Source of the DNA: Shigella phage CM1
Strand: one strand, 5' to 3'
Sequence record: MK962749
Length of the DNA: 64,000 nucleotides
Shown here: piece after piece, positions 2,786-46,199 of the stretch
Layout: each line of letters opens with the position of its first letter
Numbering within the stretch: the first letter of the stretch is position 1
Notes under the pieces: model-generated
Told to the model about the DNA's origin: nothing
Database searches by the model: none
What the model saw: the letters and a program-made list of their open reading frames with translations, nothing else
Made by a program: the position numbers and the translations under genes

Positions 2786-3547
2786 ATGCGACGACTGATT
2801 ATTATCTCCGGTGCTGGTTTGAGCGCTGAATCTGGTATTCCCACTTTCCGATCTGGTAGCACTGCAATGTGGGAGAATTTCAGCATCGATGAGGTGTGCA
2901 ACATCCACACCTTTGCCAAGAACTACTATAAGGTGCATGACTTTTACAATGCACGTCGTGTAGCTTTAGGCAGTGTTGAGCCTAACCTTGCACATCTTCG
3001 GATCGCTGAGTGGTATTCCCGCTGGTCTGGTCGTGTGATCAACCTTACCACCAATGTAGATGATTTGCTGGAGCGTGCTGGTGTAAAACATGAAGATATT
3101 TTACATGTCCACGGGTATTTGCCAGAAATAGTCTATGAGGACGATGAAGGAAGTGACGTCATTAAGGACATTGGATACTCTGAGGTAGACGCAGGAAAGT
3201 ATACCTGGGTTAAGCCTAATGTGGTGTTCTTCGGAGAAGTAGCTCCGAAGTATACAGACATGTATGACCTGTTGACTTCTTTTACGAGCAATGATATGGT
3301 TATCCTTGTAGGGTGCTCCAACACAGTTATCAATTTTAACTGGGAGCTATTCCCTGCCTGCAATAAGGGAACCAAACTACTGATCGTTAATAAATACGAC
3401 TCACAGCATCTAGAGGAGAATGGCATTTCACGTAGTGATATTTACCAGTATGAGGATCGCGGCATCCCAGTTTGGTTTAACGGTGCGGTTGATGCCTTCT
3501 CTGATAAAACATTCATTGAGACTGTAGAAAACTTTATGGAACTTTAA
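2786..3547 (+). CDS. Sir2-family NAD-dependent deacylase / ADP-ribosyltransferase, zinc-less
   Basis: GAGLSAESGIPTFRS (Rossmann GAGxS..GIPxFR), TTNVDDL, catalytic-His region HVHG, VVFFGE; no CxxC pairs between. Confidence 0.8.
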   Translation: MRRLIIISGAGLSAESGIPTFRSGSTAMWENFSIDEVCNIHTFAKNYYKVHDFYNARRVALGSVEPNLAHLRIAEWYSRWSGRVINLTTNVDDLLERAGVKHEDILHVHGYLPEIVYEDDEGSDVIKDIGYSEVDAGKYTWVKPNVVFFGEVAPKYTDMYDLLTSFTSNDMVILVGCSNTVINFNWELFPACNKGTKLLIVNKYDSQHLEENGISRSDIYQYEDRGIPVWFNGAVDAFSDKTFIETVENFMEL

Positions 3548-3560
3548 AAGGAGACCTTTA

Positions 3561-4274
3561 ATGCTGAATACTAAATTAATTGACAACCTGGAAAAACTAT
3601 CCCAACCTGAAAACTACCTTTGGTCTGCCAACTGGGTGGAAAACTGGAACCGTGTGGCAGCTAAAGTGAAAAAATCATACACACCATTCGAATTACAGCT
3701 TAGCTTCATTGAGGAAGAGTTCAATGAAGTTTTGGAAGAGCTGGAGAAAGGTGATGGTGGAGATCACCTGCTAAAGGAGGCCTGCGATCTTCACGTTGTC
3801 ACAAGTTATGCAGCTTATCTTGTTAATGACAATCACGAAAAGTGGTCAAACCTGTTTGATAATCCACAAGGTCTTAAGTTCAAGATCGGTGAGTTCTATG
3901 ACACACTGATCGCTGCGAAAAACACATCCAAGCAAAGAGCGTCAGCTTACCGTTTAGCGGAGTTGTCAACAGCTTTGCTGTTCCAGCTTCGCGGCGATGT
4001 GTGCGGGATGATGCGTAAGGTTCTCAAATCGAATGACAGCAAGTTTGCACGGGTCAACCATCTACGGTATTCACACGGTGCCAGTGCAGATATGCCTGCT
4101 GAACAACTCATAGAGTTGGAGATTAAAGATCTTGAGCGACGCTTTGATGGTCGATATGAAGGTTTTGTTGCTAAGGAAGAATTCTACAACGGTAATAAAG
4201 TTATCATATTCCTTGACAGTAAAGGTAAGATCATGAAGCCTTCGAGCTTCAAGGATGTAGCAGAGTATATTTAA
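3561..4274 (+). CDS. possible MazG-like all-alpha NTP pyrophosphohydrolase
   Basis: 237 aa; ExxE...ExxD acidic pattern (IEEEFNEVLEELEKG ... KEACDL). Confidence 0.35.
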   Translation: MLNTKLIDNLEKLSQPENYLWSANWVENWNRVAAKVKKSYTPFELQLSFIEEEFNEVLEELEKGDGGDHLLKEACDLHVVTSYAAYLVNDNHEKWSNLFDNPQGLKFKIGEFYDTLIAAKNTSKQRASAYRLAELSTALLFQLRGDVCGMMRKVLKSNDSKFARVNHLRYSHGASADMPAEQLIELEIKDLERRFDGRYEGFVAKEEFYNGNKVIIFLDSKGKIMKPSSFKDVAEYI

Positions 4275-37907: not shown

Positions 37908-38171
37908 ATGAACATCCTGATGTGGGTTGTAGCAGTGGCGTTTGTTGCATGTTTTTGCTGCTGGGTTGCGGTGAGGATTTCTGTAGCTACCCTTCGGAAG
38001 TTGGGGTTCTCAGAGTGGGATATTAATATCCTTTCTTTTCGCAATGAAACAATCTCAGCCGCCCTGCTCTGTAAGAAATTCAAGTGGGAACCTTGCGAGG
38101 TCATGAACTATCTAAGAACGGGAGATATCCCTGAAAGATTTAAAAAAGTTCTTGACGACAAGGATAAATGA
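37908..38171 (+). CDS. small membrane-anchored protein
   Basis: 87 aa; N-terminal TM ILMWVVAVAFVACFCCWVAV. Confidence 0.4.
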   Translation: MNILMWVVAVAFVACFCCWVAVRISVATLRKLGFSEWDINILSFRNETISAALLCKKFKWEPCEVMNYLRTGDIPERFKKVLDDKDK

Positions 38172-38326
38172 TAGTATAGTGACTAACAAGAGGTGAGGAA
38201 TGACTGATTTTACTGAAGCTTTAATGATGGCCTTGTCTGTTTTAGCGCTATCGGTGTGTTTTGGGGCGTTATTTACATCTCTGGTTAAAGTTTTACATAC
38301 AGTATTATTACCTAAGGGGCGCAGTA

Positions 38327-38578
38327 ATGACGAAGATTGACTTGAATGCTGGCGACCATGTTGTTGTCAAATGCATCGGAGATTATCTTGGATTCACAAT
38401 CGGCAATACTTACGAGGCGGTAGTGGCGAAGGTTTATCATGATAAAGTCCTCAGTCTTGTATTTGACTGCGATGATGATGGAGATGACCGATACGTCTGT
38501 GAGGTGCTGGCACGAGACGACAGTGAAGACCAGAAATTCCTGGTTATTGAACTGAACGGTATTTTTGTAGAACGTTAA
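38327..38578 (+). CDS. hypothetical protein
   Basis: ORF 38261-38578; start at MTKIDL with AAGGGG RBS. Confidence 0.4.
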   Translation: MTKIDLNAGDHVVVKCIGDYLGFTIGNTYEAVVAKVYHDKVLSLVFDCDDDGDDRYVCEVLARDDSEDQKFLVIELNGIFVER

Positions 38579-38606
38579 TTTAAAACAACATAAGGAGACT
38601 CTTACT

Positions 38607-38912
38607 ATGGCTAAATCTAAAGTTGAACTGTTCACCTCTCTTCCTTCTGACACTGCAGAGCGTGATCGCCTTCGCAAGACAATCGAAGAACTGGTGGAAC
38701 TCCAACTTCAGATTAAAGATCTGAAAGATGCCATTAAGGATATCATTCTCGTTGAGAAGCAGGATCACCTGTATTCTCCTAAATTCATCAAATCTCTGGT
38801 GGCTACCGAGTTCGATATTCGCTATGAGGCTGAAAAACGTCGAGCTAAAATCGAAGAAGAGGTTGAGCACATGTCCGAGGCAGACATTTTGTTCAAACGC
38901 TCTGTAGAATAA
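38607..38912 (+). CDS. hypothetical coiled-coil protein
   Basis: 101 aa with RBS AAGGAGA. Confidence 0.45.
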   Translation: MAKSKVELFTSLPSDTAERDRLRKTIEELVELQLQIKDLKDAIKDIILVEKQDHLYSPKFIKSLVATEFDIRYEAEKRRAKIEEEVEHMSEADILFKRSVE

Positions 38913-38966
38913 TGACAAAAAGAGGGGCTTGGGCCCCTCTTTTACTATCTATGAAGGAGATTTGAG

Positions 38967-39293
38967 ATGGGTATACCGATCACTGTAAAAGAATTGAATG
39001 AACGTGATGCAGGTGGTCTATGGCCTGCACGAAAAATCCGCTGCGTCTATATGAAAGAGAATCTTGAACATCTTGATCAACAGATAAAGGTCGGCGATAT
39101 TTTCGAGGTCTTCTATTCCAATCGGCGCAACTGGGAAACCATTCAGCCTTCTGGTTTTGTTCTTGCCAAACTTGACACTGGAGAAGTGATTATCCCTGGG
39201 TTGGATATTGTCTTCGAAATTATCCAAGAGTGGGATCCGGATAAGATTAGATACGAAGAATTATTCGGTAAAGGTATTATCAAACCTGTGTGA
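38967..39293 (+). CDS. hypothetical protein
   Basis: 108 aa with RBS GAAGGAGA. Confidence 0.45.
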   Translation: MGIPITVKELNERDAGGLWPARKIRCVYMKENLEHLDQQIKVGDIFEVFYSNRRNWETIQPSGFVLAKLDTGEVIIPGLDIVFEIIQEWDPDKIRYEELFGKGIIKPV

Positions 39294-39601
39294 GGTGGAT
39301 TATGTCTACAAAGGCGGCTAAATACTCCTATATGCCATCAACCTCTGCAGAGGTAGACTTTAGTTTCGATGTGTTTCCACTGTTTGAGGTGATTCTGGCA
39401 TACCCAACAATACTATCTACTCCTGAATCACTTGTACCTGTTAAGTTGCAGAACGCTATGCATTCTATGCACTACAACAATAAATGTAGGCACAGATGGT
39501 GTCAGGACGAGGAAAAAGATTTGGATAGTTTGAGGGATTTTGACAGTCACCTTTTGACACCTTTCAGCTACTCCAACCTTGATAAGCCCTCATGGGTATA
39601 G
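39290..39601 (+). CDS. hypothetical protein
   Basis: 103-aa ORF. Confidence 0.4.
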   Translation: MRWIMSTKAAKYSYMPSTSAEVDFSFDVFPLFEVILAYPTILSTPESLVPVKLQNAMHSMHYNNKCRHRWCQDEEKDLDSLRDFDSHLLTPFSYSNLDKPSWV

Positions 39602-39619
39602 CAAAATATCAAATTTAAG

Positions 39620-39655
39620 ACACCTAGGACGCTCTGTGGCGTCCTTTTCTTTATC
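39620..39655 (+). terminator. rho-independent terminator
   Basis: Hairpin AGGACGC-TCTGTG-GCGTCCT then TTTTCTTT; approximate. Confidence 0.55.
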
Positions 39656-39863
39656 TGGTGCACGATTGCATACCTTGGACAGATAATCTCGTTACAGAGC
39701 GTTTAAGAGCTTTCTACAAACAAGTCTCTCTTTCGAGCGTAGCGAGAACGCACGTCCGTTTTGACCCAAATCACCATACGCTCGGATTTTAACCAAACCC
39801 TCGCGGCGTTTCTGTTGACACATTACCGCTCCAGTGATAGTATCCACACATAGTTTGGAGAAT

Positions 39864-39965
39864 ATGGAATACACAATGAGAACATTGTCTGAAGTTTTAG
39901 TGGTGATCCTGATGATCATTACGTCCATAGCGGCTGTTGCCGGAATACTCACGGGTGGAACATGA
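39864..39965 (+). CDS. 33-aa membrane peptide
   Basis: RBS GGAGAA; MEYTMRTLSEVLVVILMIITSIAAVAGILTGGT; stop overlaps next start. Confidence 0.35.
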   Translation: MEYTMRTLSEVLVVILMIITSIAAVAGILTGGT

Positions 39966-40165
39966 TCAACACACATGCATCTGAAGGAGTGACGACCATA
40001 TGTAACCTGGATGAGCCAGTTAAAGAGGAAAACTTAGATTCTGATGACTCTTCATCTTCGTCCCAGACAGATCCTGAGGCTGATGACCTAACGTGGGAAG
40101 ACATCGTAGACATCTGGTTCTCTATTATGCCTGAGCACGAAGAGTTCAGAGGTGGTAGACTATGA
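39962..40165 (+). CDS. hypothetical acidic protein
   Basis: 67-aa ORF. Confidence 0.3.
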   Translation: MINTHASEGVTTICNLDEPVKEENLDSDDSSSSSQTDPEADDLTWEDIVDIWFSIMPEHEEFRGGRL

Positions 40166-40286
40166 AGCACCGAGCCCACACAGGTTCCTCATGCTAAAGC
40201 ATGGCCTGAAGAGGCAAACGTGCATAATTCCAGCGTATTGGAACGTATAAAACCCTGTTCACACTCTCATTTCCAGAGGAGATTTC

Positions 40287-40502
40287 ATGAAGATAGAAAT
40301 ATTTGGTGGAGCTGACAACACTCGTGGCCTGATTTACCTTGAATTCGATGAATCATACCTGCCAGAGGTGTTAAATATAGACTCTGTTGCTGAGGCTTTG
40401 GGAGTAAACCCTAAAGAACTCCACTCTTGTGCTGAGATCGATGGTTGGGAAGAGACCATGAACATTGATTTCAGTGAAGTAGAGGATGAACCGCTGGACT
40501 GA
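40287..40502 (+). CDS. small acidic protein (MKIEIFGG N-terminus)
   Basis: 71-aa ORF with RBS AGAGGAGA; last plus-strand gene before the gene desert. Confidence 0.4.
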   Translation: MKIEIFGGADNTRGLIYLEFDESYLPEVLNIDSVAEALGVNPKELHSCAEIDGWEETMNIDFSEVEDEPLD

Positions 40503-41533
40503 CACACAATTAGCTGCCCGGCTAAAGTGCTGGAAGCGCACCTATAACACATCTTTCAACTAAATTTCCCACCACCACAATCACTTACCTTCCACACATG
40601 ACTGTTTGCTTGTTTAGTGAGCAGTCATGCCTTAACATTCTTGCCTATCCTGATAAAATTAAGTTCTTCTCTTTTCTTTTACCGAGTAATTCGGGTTTTC
40701 TGTTCTCTTCGGTTTGAAGGGGTATGGAGATACACCTGAGTGAACAGGGTGAACAACCGAACATTTGGCTATGGCATTAGCATGGCGAAGCGGACGGGTG
40801 ACGAAAGAGGGGCCGGAGGACACCAGTCACTGCCATATGATATATGGGTGATAACCTGAAGAGTCTGAATAAGTGTTTAAGTACCAGTCAGAGGAAAAGG
40901 TGAATGGTAGCCGAAGGGGGAGGGGGGTTTCTTGTATCTTTAATTTGTATATTATGTATACACTTGTAAACCAATATCATCTAAATCTGTTTACCACACA
41001 AAGTGGATAGAGACAAATATTACCTATTAAACTTGAATTATTTATAGAAAATACCACAACACCACTTAAGTCTTTGATTTTACACACAAATCTTACAGAT
41101 ATTCAACCCCCATATTTAACATACCTGTAACATATTCCATACTCTACCCGCCTGATCAATTTCCCCAACTACATCCCCCATATTTCCCCCGTCTGTACTA
41201 CCACTGCCCCGCCGGGAGTCCCGTCATATCTGGCTTTCCAGCAAATATCACACCCACAAATATCATTGCCTGAAGAGGGTTTCATCCCATAATACATGCC
41301 TTACCTGAAGAGCGCTTCATACACCACGTAAATTTTTTAATTGACCTGCAATTTCTCCTCAGATATCCCCCTGTCCCGCCGGAGAGGTTGTCTTTTCCCA
41401 CACAGACCTGAAGAGTCAGTCAGAAATATCTGAATAGTCCCAATTCTACCACGATTTTGACCTGACCTACAGGGAGGCCCGAAGGGTCTAGCTTTCAGCT
41501 AGAGCCCTTGCAGGACCTACAGGAGCGCTGCCA

Positions 41534-42579
41534 GGCGGACGGAATGGGAATACTTCTCATTCTTATAACAATTCTCAAATATCGAGGCAGTGAGAGAAAT
41601 TAATAGGCCAGGCCGTTCACACAGTGGCACAACATTTGCAACCTATTTTGTGTGGATGAATGAGAATACCTATCATTGTGAGAACTGTTATCATTACGGG
41701 CAATTTAACATAATACCCATTATGCGCACCACTGGCGATACATACAGGGATTGATAACATGGGTTACTGTTTACGCACATAACAATTATATTTCTTATTA
41801 TTTGTGGGGGATATAGTTAGCAGCCAATAGATTAGATATTGACCTGCAGACTTCTGACCGTCTAGACGTCTAAACGCCCACACATCAAGGGTTATACATA
41901 CATTACTGAATGTAAACAAGGCCGCAAAAATGCTACCATACCAGTTTGTAAATTTTTCATGCAGCACTTGACAAAGAGGAGGAAAACTTGTCTGACATAC
42001 TGTGACATAATATGACATAATAGTGACACACTGGGCATACTCAACACACTGGATACGGCGGACGGAATGGGAATACTTCTCATTCTTATAACAATTCTCA
42101 AATATCGAGGCAGTGAGAGAAATTAATAGGCCAGGCCGTTCACACAGTGGCACAACATTTGCAACCTATTTTGTGTGGATGAATGAGAATACCTATCATT
42201 GTGAGAACTGTTATCATTACGGGCAATTTAACATAATACCCATTATGCGCACCACTGGCGATACATACAGGGATTGATAACATGGGTTACTGTTTACGCA
42301 CATAACAATTATATTTCTTATTATTTGTGGGGGATATAGTTAGCAGCCAATAGATTAGATATTGACCTGCAGACTTCTGACCGTCTAGACGTCTAAACGC
42401 CCACACATCAAGGGTTATACATACATTACTGAATGTAAACAAGGCCGCAAAAATGCTACCATACCAGTTTGTAAATTTTTCATGCAGCACTTGACAAAGA
42501 GGAGGAAAACTTGTCTGACATACTGTGACATAATATGACATAATAGTGACACACTGGGCATACTCAACACACTGGATAC
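41534..42579. repeat. tandem direct repeat, 2 copies of about 523 bp
   Basis: Minus-strand track ORFs 41764-42153 and 42287-42679 share an identical 96-aa C-terminal segment; likewise 41892 and 42415; both offsets 523 nt. Confidence 0.85.
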
Positions 42580-42599
42580 AATAACAATTGTTACTATTG

Positions 42600-42960
42600 C
42601 ATGCCTCACTGTTCACGCATAGATGATAAGCCATGCCATTCGTTTGCATGAAAACAATTAACAAGATAACAATCGACAAGTTAATAATCTTTCGCTGGCT
42701 ATGCCAGGTGACTAGGTCACCCCTTCGGGCGTTCCTATGACATAATATAAAAGCAGGGCAACTATTAGCAGATCTATAGTTGCCTTGCTTGTTATGTCAT
42801 GATTAACTAAATACAAGGCAACTATGATCTGATTAATAGTTTGCAGACAAACTATCACGGGGGTGATGGTTACTGCTTTTATATTATGTCGCGACTCCGT
42901 CGCGCCATGCCATTCGTTTGCATAGTTGCCTTATTGTTACAGATAAAATAATTGTATTGT
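42600..42960. repeat. cluster of inverted and direct short repeats (iteron-like)
   Basis: GGCAACTAT-N10-ATAGTTGCC; 18-bp inverted pair GACATAATATAAAAGCAG / CTGCTTTTATATTATGTC about 110 bp apart; GCCATGCCATTCGTTTGCAT twice; palindrome GGTGACTAGGTCACC; approximate. Confidence 0.6.
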
Positions 42961-43539
42961 TAATTATTTCTTATCTTTCTATTAGTCATCTAATGATTTC
43001 AGTTAATATAGTAACGTACAGTAAACATTAGACGACTAAAGATTTCTCTGCTTATGGTAACCTAACGTGACAATTCCAGACTGTTTACGAAAAATGTTGA
43101 CACCTGGGCCGATTTATGTTATGCAGTTTACACGAATAATTATTTTATGCAGGTATTGACTATTCCGTTATTCTATGGTTGGAATAAATGCTTAGCAGGC
43201 TATAGAATGGCGAGCGTACGTAAATTCTGAGATCTGGCGGCTATAGTTATACTCAATTTTTCACGTAGAAAACGTTTTTGTAGTTATGTAAGTGTATGAC
43301 TTATAAAGATTTTTAGTTGTTGACAAGCTATTGAAGATATGCATCAGGTTAAATTTTGTGCAATAGCGGCATTACGTGCACTTTTGGGAGAGAAAACGGG
43401 TAAAAATGGACTTGCTACCACACAATGAAAAATTATGCAATAGTTATTTTCCATGTATATTTGTACAGTATGTGGGATTGATGGCTAGTCCATTATTCCA
43501 CTTGCCAGGTAGGGCCGTTTATGGTAGGAGAAGAGCAGA

Positions 43540-43570
43540 CAAAGAGAAAGGGGCCTAAGCCCCTTGATAA
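43540..43570 (-). terminator. rho-independent terminator at end of minus-strand gene array
   Basis: Hairpin AAGGGGC-CTAA-GCCCCTT, T-rich tract following on the minus strand; approximate. Confidence 0.5.
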
Positions 43571-43583
43571 TTCAGTTAAAAAA

Positions 43584-44003
43584 TTATAATGATTCGTATA
43601 TTTCAAAAATCCGATTTGCCAGGTCGTTACGGTAGCGGAATTTTTCCTCACGTTTGATCATAAGATCTTTATAGCCGTACTCTTTAAGCACTTCATTAAC
43701 TTTATAGCGGCATACTTTCATATTATCCTGCGCGTCACCAATAAATCTGTTGCTATGGTGCATGGCTTTAATTTCTTCTTCCAGGACCAGGGCAACTATG
43801 CGGACCGGATCAAGCTGATAGGCGGTAACATCCATGCGGCATTGTAAACGGCTTTTTACGTCTGCCACCGGATATACTGCAACCTCTTCCCCGTCAACAT
43901 TGACAATAATTAGTTTACCATCGATTTCGAATCCTTTCGCCGCCGGACCGTGACAAAAAGCGTTATCAAAGCTATATGCCGGATTATTAGATTTAATGTT
44001 CAT
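43584..44003 (-). CDS. hypothetical protein
   Basis: 139-aa ORF. Confidence 0.45.
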   Translation of the reverse strand: MNIKSNNPAYSFDNAFCHGPAAKGFEIDGKLIIVNVDGEEVAVYPVADVKSRLQCRMDVTAYQLDPVRIVALVLEEEIKAMHHSNRFIGDAQDNMKVCRYKVNEVLKEYGYKDLMIKREEKFRYRNDLANRIFEIYESL

Positions 44004-44148
44004 GGTGTTTTTACCTCTTAGTTAATTTTCTTACAACTTCCCTTTAAAAAAGAATATAGCAAAACTGCCGATCCCTGTCAACCAGGGATAGCATAATTTT
44101 TTATGTGATCAAGGGGCTTTATTGCCCCTGACCATGTAACTTGTTGTA

Positions 44149-44412
44149 TTATTTGTTGCTCATCCAGTTTTCCCAAGCTGCCTGATAATCTGCCTCACTA
44201 CGGCGGATCTCTTCTTGCTCTTCAAGGCGGATCTCTTCTTCCAGGTACCCCAAGATGTCAGCCTTTTTAGTCTGGCGTAGCATCCAGTCATCTTTTTTGC
44301 GAGTGAAGATCTTATAAGCTTTCTCGCAAACCTCTTTTTTGCTACCTTTCTGGACTTCAAGAACACGATAAGCCATATATTGAACTAATTTGAGCTGATC
44401 AAGACGTTTCAT
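44149..44412 (-). CDS. hypothetical protein
   Basis: 87-aa ORF. Confidence 0.45.
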   Translation of the reverse strand: MKRLDQLKLVQYMAYRVLEVQKGSKKEVCEKAYKIFTRKKDDWMLRQTKKADILGYLEEEIRLEEQEEIRRSEADYQAAWENWMSNK

Positions 44413-44472
44413 GATGTTTACCTCTTTGTGCGGTTCTGATTAGTGGGCCTTTTGGCCCGTGTCATTATCTTA

Positions 44473-44745
44473 TTACTTATGGCGGCAGAATTCAAGCGTT
44501 TTTAATTGATAATCTTCCTCAGCTTGGAGTACGACCGCCTCGATCATTTCGTTGGCATTGTTAAAGCCATAACCTTTAGCGAACTCATCCGCGCCACCTT
44601 CGTGATCATGTTCTGCGTTCATCGCTTCCACAAAATGGAATTCCAAATTGTTGAGGTAGGGGCTTGATGTTCCGTCCTCTTTTTCGATGAGATCCCAAAT
44701 AGCATTAAAACGTGATTCGACTTCTTGATTAATCCAGCTTGACAT
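44473..44745 (-). CDS. hypothetical acidic protein
   Basis: 90-aa ORF. Confidence 0.45.
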   Translation of the reverse strand: MSSWINQEVESRFNAIWDLIEKEDGTSSPYLNNLEFHFVEAMNAEHDHEGGADEFAKGYGFNNANEMIEAVVLQAEEDYQLKTLEFCRHK

Positions 44746-44962
44746 AGTGTTTTCCTCTCTCCTGGTTGTTGTGTGGGCACTTTTGCCCCTTCAAGATAAA
44801 TGTTACCTCACCCCATGGCAGATGTCAACGGTTTTTATAGTTCTTATATGACAGGCAGACCTGGTGATTGTCTCCCCCTGTTCCCAAGTGCCGCCCGTTT
44901 AATAAGAATAGCAAAAGGGGCCGAACAAGTCAACCCCAAAATCAGTACCAAAACACTTTTAT

Positions 44963-45274
44963 TTATACGGTCCGATCATTGGCCTTTGTCCAGGACCTGG
45001 CGATCCGTTTCCCGGTCACCTGGAACGGAGGCTGCATTGTGTGTAATGAGTCCAGAGTAAGGGAGGACCGTTTACGGCGTATCTTCAGGATTGCTAACGT
45101 ATTGTCCATCTCACGGCCAGGTCCTGGGCGGTATGGTGTGCCTCCAGCGTTAAGGTTGATGATCTCATGTATTGAGATCCGGCGTTGTTTTGCTTCCGCA
45201 TCTTTGAAGATAGCCAGCGGAGGCGCTATGCGTTGCCGATACCAATCTAAAACGGTTGGCGTAATAGCGATCAT
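44963..45274 (-). CDS. hypothetical protein
   Basis: 103-aa ORF; plus-strand ORFs overlap it. Confidence 0.3.
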   Translation of the reverse strand: MIAITPTVLDWYRQRIAPPLAIFKDAEAKQRRISIHEIINLNAGGTPYRPGPGREMDNTLAILKIRRKRSSLTLDSLHTMQPPFQVTGKRIARSWTKANDRTV

Positions 45275-45462
45275 ATTTTACCCCCTATGTAGTCCGGTCG
45301 GTTTTTCTCTGTCATACGCTTAAGCAATTCTTGCATGTTGCTTATGGCTTGTAGTGTATCCTCTTCAAGGGATGAATCAAGATAATCAGGATCATTCTTC
45401 ACCTTGCAATGATTATGATAACGCAGTACCGCCAGTACTTTTTTAACTTCTTCCGCTGTCAT
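45271..45462 (-). CDS. hypothetical protein
   Basis: 63-aa ORF. Confidence 0.4.
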   Translation of the reverse strand: MTAEEVKKVLAVLRYHNHCKVKNDPDYLDSSLEEDTLQAISNMQELLKRMTEKNRPDYIGGKI

Positions 45463-45470
45463 TATCGCGC

Positions 45471-45605
45471 CTAAAACAATGAGTTAATATATAACACCAG
45501 ATCGCTGACTACCAGGACAACATTAATCAGCACATACCTAACCATAAAGGGAAAGATCACCAACATTGCCGCCACGATCCCCATGGTAATAATTATCTTT
45601 CTCAT
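45471..45605 (-). CDS. 44-aa membrane peptide
   Basis: ATG 2 nt after upstream stop; MRKIIITMGIVAAMLVIFPFMVRYVLINVVLVVSDLVLYINSLF. Confidence 0.35.
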   Translation of the reverse strand: MRKIIITMGIVAAMLVIFPFMVRYVLINVVLVVSDLVLYINSLF

Positions 45606-45607
45606 GG

Positions 45608-45892
45608 TTAACGGTTCACGTAAGTTTTCCCGTTTACGGTTATCGGCAGATCCTCCAGGTCTGGATCTTCTTTAAGGTCGTGAGCAAGTTCACCGCACCG
45701 AACGCCCTCGAATCCGTAGTACTCTGTCGTGCCATCCTGGAAAGTTTTAGCGGCAAGGCATAGGCGATAAGTAACACCGATTTGATTGACGGCATGGATA
45801 TCAGTTAGATCTACCTCTTTTGCCAGCTCTTTGGCCATTACAGGCGCATTAAGTCCAACAACCAGGGCAACCACTGCGATCATCTTTTTCAT
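45608..45892 (-). CDS. small secreted protein
   Basis: 94 aa; signal peptide MKKMIAVVALVVGLNAPVMA; two Cys in mature part. Confidence 0.5.
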   Translation of the reverse strand: MKKMIAVVALVVGLNAPVMAKELAKEVDLTDIHAVNQIGVTYRLCLAAKTFQDGTTEYYGFEGVRCGELAHDLKEDPDLEDLPITVNGKTYVNR

Positions 45893-45983
45893 TGTATCTA
45901 TCCTCTTTCTGCTACGTTTAAGGCGGCGGCAACCGCCTGTTTATGCTTTGTTGGTTAATTTTCGGGTATCGGTATAAATTAAA

Positions 45984-46199
45984 CTATGCTGTACGCTCAA
46001 CTATAACAACGGCTTGAGGGATCTCACCTTCCACCACTATCAAGGCTTTTTTCTGCGTAATGGATATCTTTACCCGCTTCAGCGTGGCGGTAAAGTCTTT
46101 CATTTCGTCGCGTGGTGTTTTAGTGCAATGCCAGATCTCAGGCTTGCCGATCTGCAAGTTGCGTAAAAATTCTGTTTTGCCTGTTTTGTTAGTGATCAT
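45984..46199 (-). CDS. hypothetical protein
   Basis: 71-aa ORF. Confidence 0.4.
   Translation of the reverse strand: MITNKTGKTEFLRNLQIGKPEIWHCTKTPRDEMKDFTATLKRVKISITQKKALIVVEGEIPQAVVIVERTA

Follow-up and report, generated by a model that had tools for sequence, protein, structure and literature searches.

Here we describe a folded, non-coding element in a 64,000-nucleotide (nt) stretch of the genome of Shigella phage CM1 (sequence record MK962749; the whole stretch is referred to as the window). The repeats clustered at positions 42600–42960 of the window, originally predicted to form an iteron-like replication origin or an operator, emerge on folding as the arms of one nested stem-loop of about 150 nt (42739–42890), and the same architecture occupies the same location in seven genera of Vequintavirinae. 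The cluster looks more like a structured nucleic-acid element than a classical iteron origin or operator. Our preferred reading, to which we attach a probability of roughly 0.4 on the basis of sequence comparison, is that the element may be a bidirectional terminator or insulator beside the direct terminal repeat (DTR). The window derives from an rV5-like phage (genus Vequintavirus) that is matched at 80–99% identity by 119 records of the phage collection, nearly all of which are Vequintavirus.

The element is closed by a perfect inverted pair of 18 base pairs (bp), at 42739–42756 and 42873–42890, which encloses 116 nt. No other perfect inverted repeat of 14 bp or more whose arms lie no more than 250 bp apart occurs in the whole window; shuffled sequences contained 0–1 of these. 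Compared with shuffled sequences, the element folds with z-scores of −8.1 (RNA, + strand), −9.3 (RNA, − strand) and −10.5 (DNA). Its closing parts and the box that follows them are:

42739–42756, + strand: left arm of the closing helix, GACATAATATAAAAGCAG; the outer part is A-rich and the inner part GC
42873–42890, + strand: right arm of the closing helix, CTGCTTTTATATTATGTC; a GC inner part, then a U-rich outer part
42888–42907, + strand: conserved box, GTCGCGACTCCGTCGCGCCA (GTCGC...CGCGCCA), directly after the closing helix and containing a small GC hairpin

Conservation of pairing and of sequence

The locus was compared in 16 lineages from seven genera (Vequintavirus, Septuagintavirus, Mydovirus, Seunavirus, Avunavirus and Henunavirus, together with IMG/VR contigs). 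Every lineage has an inverted repeat of 16–21 bp around 71–217 nt, which is perfect except in EC152 and GAP31, where one arm contains one bulged base. The helix ends at a GTCGC-N-CGCGCCA box in every genus but Henunavirus, in which the box has diverged; in the other six genera, each locus has one copy of the box in the few kilobases (kb) examined, always in one orientation and immediately behind the closing helix. In the window, the pattern GTCGC-N(2-16)-CGCGCC has a single match. Homology across genera rests on this common box and the perfect inverted repeat.

The sequences of the closing-helix left arms differ between lineages (GACATAATATAAAAGCAG, GACACTATAAAACGAG, AGCGACACAATAACACGGGAG, GACACAATAACGCAGTAG and GCCACCTATAAAAGCAAGTAG), always with complementary changes in the right arm. 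Both partners have changed in eleven of the 18 pairs, and pairing holds in 99.4% of cells; the count of both-side changes, the percentage paired and the covariation score were each reached by 0 of 500 shuffles, and slid controls gave 0–3. The count of further pair types was reached by 10 of 500 shuffles. No G·U pair occurs in the 162 cells of this helix. For the inner helices of the Mydovirus/Seunavirus group, we found nine compensatory pairs with 98.8% of cells paired (slid controls, 0–1); four helices covary, with variable loops. On the + strand, G·U is seen at four pair positions of these inner helices and A·C in no cell, a weak basis for assigning a strand because it comprises four positions in one clade, none of them decisive in the window's own element. 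The sequence changes while pairing is kept, and the folded structure is therefore the conserved property.

Within Vequintavirus, the interior and surroundings of the element contain the following further parts:

42630–42649, + strand: first copy of the direct repeat GCCATGCCATTCGTTTGCAT, an invariant island in variable DNA
42707–42729, + strand: palindrome GGTGACTAGGTCACC at 42707–42721 plus the CCCCTTCGGG hairpin, a variable accessory part
42757–42784: palindrome 1, GGCAACTAT (42757–42765)-N10-ATAGTTGCC (42776–42784)
42817–42844: palindrome 2, GGCAACTAT (42817–42825)-N10-ATAGTTTGC (42833–42841), 60 bp from palindrome 1
42850–42871, + strand: side hairpin, AACTATCAC-GGGG-GTGATGGTT
42904–42930, + strand: second copy of the direct repeat, GCCATGCCATTCGTTTGCAT at 42904–42923, overlapping a third ATAGTTGCC (42922–42930)
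42930–43000: AT-rich block, 18–20% GC, the most AT-rich stretch of the surrounding gene-free gap

Palindromes 1 and 2 (GGCAACTAT-N10-ATAGTT(T)GC(C)) can each fold locally, and the lowest-energy fold pairs them with each other into one long rod. With its flanks (42737–42800), palindrome 1 forms an imperfect palindrome of around 64 bp. A degenerate copy, CAAACTAT, lies at 42845–42852, and a C(UUCG)G-type hairpin lies upstream of the element. The accessory palindrome and hairpin at 42707–42729 are missing from the magaca/naswa/EdH4 lineage. The two copies of the 20-bp repeat are 274 bp apart.

Every repeat listed by the original prediction is present and correctly located, far beyond chance; the 18-bp inverted pair is perfect as described, and the interval between its arms, given as about 110 bp, is the 116 nt stated above. 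The motif GGCAACTAT occurs 6 times in 64 kb compared with 0.49 expected, a count reached by 0 of 100 shuffles, and 4 of the 6 lie inside 175 bp. For ATGACATAA, there are 4 copies compared with 0.8 expected, all 4 in the gap. The 20-mer GCCATGCCATTCGTTTGCAT has only its two copies in the window when 3 mismatches are allowed. The AT-rich DNA after the repeats is also as predicted: 42930–42995 (18% GC) is the most AT-rich 60 bp of the non-coding gap, and 42940–43000 has 19.7% GC compared with 42.6% for the window. A scan of IMG/VR for GGCAACTAT-N(6-16)-ATAGTTGCC returned 26 contigs, all of which, apart from two that are rV5-like, were unrelated generic hairpins. Separately, an unrelated 58-kb viral contig (IMGVR_UViG_3300037721_000035, 4788–5168) has six GCAACTAT/ATAGTTGC copies in 400 bp, and may be an independent repeat cluster with the same 8-mer.

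What the comparison does not bear out is the identity of these repeats as iterons. The GGCAACTAT sites are two inverted pairs and an extra inverted copy rather than phased direct repeats; nowhere in the cluster are there three or more regular direct repeats of 17–22 bp, the sole long direct repeat being the two-copy 20-mer. Moreover, GGCAACTAT is confined to Vequintavirus; the homologous element lacks it in A73, KPP-1, SSE121, 4MG, Av-05 and pEa55 and throughout the other six genera, in which different hairpins fill the interior and base-pairing is kept instead. Protein-bound sites would keep their sequence and not covary, which removes the main support for iterons or operators. Each genus has a direct repeat of its own, one copy of which stands just after the box and is followed by AT-rich DNA.

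In an alignment of 4 kb from nine Vequintavirus sequences, 42741–42940 is the second most conserved 200-bp segment, with 11 variable columns compared with a typical 30–45, and the longest invariant run (94 bp) is 42847–42940. The few variable sites of this segment lie in predicted loops or turn a G·U into a G-C pair. With blastn, the Vequintavirus element sequence was matched within that genus only.

Alone among the 119 records, FV3 (JQ031132, around 1500–1560) carries a deletion of the element. The deletion is precise, spanning 274 bp between the two GCCATGCCATTCGTTTGCAT copies: the left context of copy 1 runs into the right context of copy 2, so that one repeat copy is left and the flanks are kept. 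Absence of the repeats from a close relative with conserved flanks, which the original prediction had itself named as evidence against an origin or operator, is therefore what this record displays. FV3 was isolated as a viable phage and the deletion removes the conserved box as well; the element may be dispensable, if the deletion is genuine. Either FV3 is a natural mutant or its record reflects an artefact of cloning or sequencing, in which palindromes flanked by direct repeats are classically lost.

A possible stop between convergent transcription units

The element lies in a gene-free gap of about 3 kb (40503–43583) at which two blocks of genes converge, those on the left being on the + strand and those on the right on the − strand. 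Carefully annotated relatives also leave the gap without genes. Of the open reading frames (ORFs) within it, none has a PHROG or Pfam match, in contrast to the flanking genes, which belong to PHROG families; for the nearest genes (43584–44003 and 40287–40502), these are families of unknown function and no Pfam domain was found. A protein-coding explanation was rejected: the ORFs at 42287–42679, 42712–42858 and 43376–43558 have no PHROG or Pfam match, and the indels of relatives in them are not multiples of three. ARAGORN found no tRNA genes. The rV5 genome paper draws this region as a ‘non-coding’ box of about 2.5 kb, predicts that there should be a bidirectional terminator between genes 163 and 164 and reports that none was found, and ascribes the GC-skew switch at the gap to a changed direction of transcription (PMC3606486). 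In the window, too, the GC skew switches where the gene orientation does.

This setting bears on the operator and origin proposals. Both blocks point at the element with their 3′ ends, which leaves no gene downstream of it in either direction, and no conserved promoter accompanies it; nor is there an initiator gene next to it, the flanking genes being those of unknown function. An origin is thus a minority reading, for which it can be said that redundant origins are possible in phages and that the AT-rich block is real. What stands of the original prediction is a non-coding, cis-acting and strongly constrained cluster of symmetric sites followed by AT-rich DNA; its identity as iterons or operators does not.

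The mechanism that we propose is that the closing helix would stop transcription in both directions, as an intrinsic terminator or an insulator. Whichever strand is read, the polymerase would transcribe an A-rich tract, an interior that has folded by then, a GC-rich return arm and a U-rich tract, at which point the long helix would snap shut and release the transcript. Such a stop could deal with read-through from both convergent blocks and with transcription from promoter-like sites of the terminal region; without it, transcription might pass over the terminal repeat or proceed antisense into the neighbouring genes. Because G·U pairs of the inner helices fall on the + strand only, the + strand transcript may be the one to carry the element as a folded 3′ domain. 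The box, direct repeats and AT-rich block could have a second, DNA-level role at the genome end.

Several features point in this direction. In all lineages, the closing helix keeps the same composition, GC-rich in the core, A-rich in the outer part of the 5′ arm and U-rich in that of the 3′ arm (for example, ...TATAAAAGCAG/CTGCTTTTATA..., ...TAAAACGAG/CTCGTTTTA... and ...AACACGGGAG/CTCCCGTGTT...). A GC-rich stem followed by a U-tract is present on both strands here (...AAAAGCAG...CTGCTTTT...), and equivalents occur in all lineages. Because the repeat is perfect, both strands read alike, which is the design of a bidirectional intrinsic terminator, and the lack of G·U in the closing helix is as expected if both strands must fold. 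The element is positioned where convergent transcription units meet, with ordinary terminators closer to the genes. On the − strand, palindrome 1 of Vequintavirus has the canonical terminator form, with UUUUAUAUUAU coming directly after a hairpin. The Murica and Alma records also list a − strand terminator, placed here at the level of the conserved region rather than of the palindrome-1 hairpin. The absence of the element from FV3 fits a non-essential function.

Other observations weigh against termination. Canonical terminators already stand directly after the last genes (43548–43565 on the − strand and 40682–40694 on the + strand), and the element would therefore be a second stop, 600–2000 bp further on. 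A structured ‘loop’ of 71–217 nt is very unusual for an intrinsic terminator, and the local units of hairpin and U-tract are not conserved outside Vequintavirus (A73, KPP-1). Termination also leaves unexplained the box, the direct repeats, the AT-rich block and the near-invariance of about 200 bp within the genus. No sigma-70 promoter is conserved at a fixed offset beside the element on either strand in 10 lineages, and a literature search found no transcriptome of any member of the Vequintavirinae.

The terminal repeat and the rest of the gap

Two features separate the element from the genome end:

42057–42515, + strand: DTR, GGCGGACG...AAAACTTGTC, mapped by sequence from the published DTR of relatives
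42516–42579, + strand: GACAY array, phased units TGACATACTG TGACATAATA TGACATAATAG TGACACAC..., abutting the DTR end

The published repeats are 459 bp in LL12 (104966–105424, by PhageTerm; PMC6658697), 459 bp in Gotham (PMC7471380) and 458 bp in EdH4 and HdK5 (PMC6563267). The DTR end was determined experimentally for LL12, EdH4, Gotham and KPP-1; in the window, the predicted ends are those of the LL12 repeat, mapped by sequence. The records of EdH4 and bov10K2 begin exactly at GGCGGACG, the first base of the DTR, and that of ECP2303 terminates exactly at its last base (...CTTGTC). The repeat cluster at 42600–42960 is 85–445 bp inside the right edge of the DTR and, given this mapping, begins 85 bp in from the left terminus of the virion DNA. 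Across genera, the distance from the element to the right end of the DTR is 177–313 bp in 10 of 14 lineages, those with a locatable DTR-end motif.

The Klebsiella phage KPP-1 (Mydovirus) has an experimentally determined DTR of 514 bp (PMC9862379), which ends in a related purine-rich ...TTGTGT motif. Its gene layout is that of the window, and a perfect 21-bp inverted repeat around 164 nt lies 309 bp inside the DTR end; the KPP-1 element has recognisable homologues in Seunavirus, Henunavirus and Avunavirus. In and around this element (3441–3664 and 3886), 16-bp palindromic sites of the form TGATAA-N4-TTATCA occur four to five times, and a 33-mer containing TTGACAAG is found both inside the DTR and just after the element.

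Short-repeat arrays flank the DTR on both sides. The GACAY units on the right recur about once per helical turn and are hypervariable among relatives, as is the DNA beyond them up to the element, in which the first copy of the 20-bp repeat is the one invariant exception. Directly to the left (41440–41533) are short degenerate units, CCTACAGGAGYGCT, GTCAGGAGCCGGT and TACTGGAGTGCT (CWGGAGYGCT-type), with large indels between relatives; this array includes a hairpin, GGGTCTAGCT-TTC-AGCTAGAGCCC, whose loop is GAA in bov10K2. All 4 copies of GACATAATA in the window are within the gap.

A second, identical copy of the DTR is found at 41534–41992, as part of an exact (100%) tandem duplication of 523 bp (41534–42056 and 42057–42579) that consists of the published 459-bp DTR and the next 64 bp, and so includes the GACAY array. 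None of the closest public relatives has this duplication, which is either terminal redundancy that was assembled twice (the DTR of this lineage would then be 523 bp rather than 459 bp) or a very recent real duplication. Tandem Repeats Finder detected no repeat, the 523-bp duplication being above its period limit.

Further to the left, the most conserved non-coding block of the gap is 40666–40915, in which 7 columns vary over 200 bp and two runs, of 81 and 75 bp, do not vary at all. Its + strand is rich in purines, and it starts at the terminator-like hairpin at 40682–40694, just before which is a promoter-like site (40632–40659; 10 of 12 positions, with TG). The block was not notably structured when tested as 40660–40940 (z = −1.4 and −0.1) and had no Rfam match. 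The left half of the gap also contains four + strand copies of CCTGAAGAG (40855, 41269, 41304 and 41407), compared with seven in the whole window, a third family of repeated motifs.

On the other side, the − strand gene at 43584–44003 (139 amino acids (aa), phrog_12277) is the first gene inside the left end and has no Pfam family match. Some relatives have it and others, PMBT16 and Alma among them, do not, which marks it as an accessory gene; the Murica record annotates the product of its counterpart with a Rel homology domain. A 24-bp tandem direct repeat (75% identity) lies at 44189–44236, within an 87-aa gene (44149–44412). Among the public sequences, 18 GenBank records (MG0656xx) named ‘Campylobacter phage’ (host: Campylobacter jejuni) are 90–99.7% identical to the rV5-like region, and their naming or host assignment looks doubtful.

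Alternative readings and known systems

The best-surviving alternative, which we nevertheless rate as rather unlikely, is a DNA-level element of the genome end: a cruciform or single-stranded hairpin that would serve duplication or processing of the terminal repeat or recruitment of the terminase or, alternatively, an origin or primosome-loading site with AT-rich DNA for unwinding. It draws on the position of the element, because the neighbourhood to the right end of the DTR is kept in every lineage in which that end can be placed and short-repeat arrays stand on both sides of the DTR. The closing helix is strictly Watson–Crick and very stable as DNA (the z-score of −10.5 given above); a sequence box shared across genera lies beside it, the most AT-rich DNA of the gap comes directly after, and about 200 bp are invariant within the genus. 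Vequintavirinae phages also have a T7-like replisome and T7-type packaging (PMC3606486, PMC9862379). The G·U-type pairs of the inner helices speak against it, as they are all on one strand and would not be tolerated by a symmetric cruciform, and so does FV3, which is viable without the whole element and box, unless its deletion is a palindrome artefact. The distance to the DTR end, moreover, varies (177–313 bp) over hypervariable DNA, and the DTR ends of this genome are those transferred from relatives rather than observed termini or read starts.

Termination and a role at the genome end are not necessarily rivals. In T3 and T7, pausing of RNA polymerase at the concatemer junction starts packaging (PMC3276506), so that one element could be both a transcription stop and a packaging signal. 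A broader proposal, which we regard as possible and on the unlikely side, is that the element could be a cis-acting genome-end signal of Vequintavirinae, with the hairpin recognised as structure and the box as sequence, that would either stall transcription so as to bring in the terminase and duplicate the DTR, or prime or seed replication of the left end through the AT-rich DNA; under the same proposal, it might instead represent a new class of structured phage RNA.

Less probable than the DNA-level element is a stand-alone structured non-coding RNA (ncRNA) of the + strand. Promoter-like sites beside the DTR edge would drive its transcription rightward, the U-rich arm of the closing helix would form its end, and it would act in trans, for example as a decoy or early regulator. 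Four covarying helices with variable loops, the + strand G·U pairs at four positions without A·C, and the upstream C(UUCG)G-type hairpin are what such an RNA would display, and promoter-like sites do point into the element (42515–42544, 10 of 12 positions with TG; 11 of 12 in LL12). Dispensability in FV3 would fit an accessory RNA. The candidate promoters, however, are not conserved even within the genus, the closing helix, having no G·U at all, seems to be under selection on each strand, and the conserved box and direct repeat would fall outside the RNA. Rfam 15 gave no covariance-model match at E ≤ 1 in 38000–46000 of the window or in six related loci. There is a precedent in the pseudo-ToxI of the rV5-like phage phiTE (PMC3475682), an ncRNA in a different part of the genome; a direct link to it was rejected, as that locus is near tRNA genes and the terminase gene.

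We consider it very improbable that the cluster is a strict set of iterons or operators, with GGCAACTAT and ATGACATAA bound by a phage initiator or repressor. Both motifs do occur in clusters and far more often than expected, the spacing of 60 bp between the GGCAACTAT palindromes is roughly six helical turns, AT-rich DNA follows the repeats, and the KPP-1 group has repeated palindromic sites of its own, of the TGATAA-N4-TTATCA type. Against this, pairing and not the motifs is conserved in the element of other genera, hairpin changes are compensatory rather than motif-preserving, neither an initiator or repressor gene next to the cluster nor a downstream gene to regulate is present, and the cluster is missing from FV3. 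A mobile element resembling a miniature inverted-repeat transposable element was rejected, as there is no target-site duplication and the locus is the same in diverged genera.

The non-coding box and the DTR are already in the literature; in the literature searched, we found no description of the structured element, of its conservation across the subfamily or of the conserved sequence box. The empty box of the rV5 paper thus acquires an anatomy: a DTR with short-repeat arrays, then a structured element and a conserved sequence box that extend across the subfamily. Vequintavirinae are among the most frequently isolated phages of Escherichia coli, Klebsiella and Salmonella and are used in therapeutic and biocontrol cocktails. 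For these phages, the element is a concrete target for work on transcript ends, genome-end processing and replication, and it bears on where inserts are placed and which part of the genome end is kept in engineering. Through its natural deletion, FV3 makes it possible to ask directly whether the element is needed. Should the element prove to be a genome-end signal or a new RNA class, a large group of phages in therapeutic use would turn out to have a conserved non-coding determinant that had not been described before.

Of the systems to which the element can be compared, the injection-stop region of T5, a repeat- and palindrome-rich stretch of non-coding DNA near the left end, resembles it in having direct and inverted repeats close to a terminal repeat. 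The two share no sequence similarity, and two-step entry would make no sense for the element, since by that point no more than about 0.7 kb of DNA, all of it gene-free, would have entered the cell. Iteron-type origins (lambda ori and plasmid Rep origins) are similarly non-coding, with short repeats beside an AT-rich stretch; they differ in that the repeats here are palindromes, there is no initiator in cis, and pairing rather than a motif is conserved across genera. The element can also be compared with structured single-strand initiation (ssi) and RNA-primed origins, such as the ssi sites of G4 and phiX174, ColE1 RNA II and T4 oriF/oriG. These share with the element a multi-hairpin form, pairing conserved on one strand, a position beside easily melted DNA and, in the phage, a Pol A-type polymerase, whereas the closing helix of the element is symmetric on both strands and no conserved promoter accompanies it.

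In T7, the terminal repeat is flanked by arrays of short repeats, SRL and SRR, and Chung, Nardone and Hinkle reportedly described, in 1990, a hairpin intermediate at the T7/T3 concatemer junction. The junction and the element differ in that they have no sequence similarity, that Vequintavirinae phages lack a phage RNA polymerase, that the palindrome is on the left-end side of the repeat and that FV3 apparently does without the element. They are alike in the short exact DTR, the arrays on both of its flanks, a palindrome or transcription stop within a few hundred bp, and a T7-like replisome and packaging. Bidirectional rho-independent terminators differ from the element in that its ‘loop’ of 71–217 nt is itself a conserved, covarying domain of several hairpins, and that it stands 0.6–2 kb past the ordinary terminators, with a box, direct repeats and an AT-rich block. 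They agree with it in lying between convergent units, in the perfect inverted repeat of A-tract, GC core and U-tract, and in a stem that covaries.

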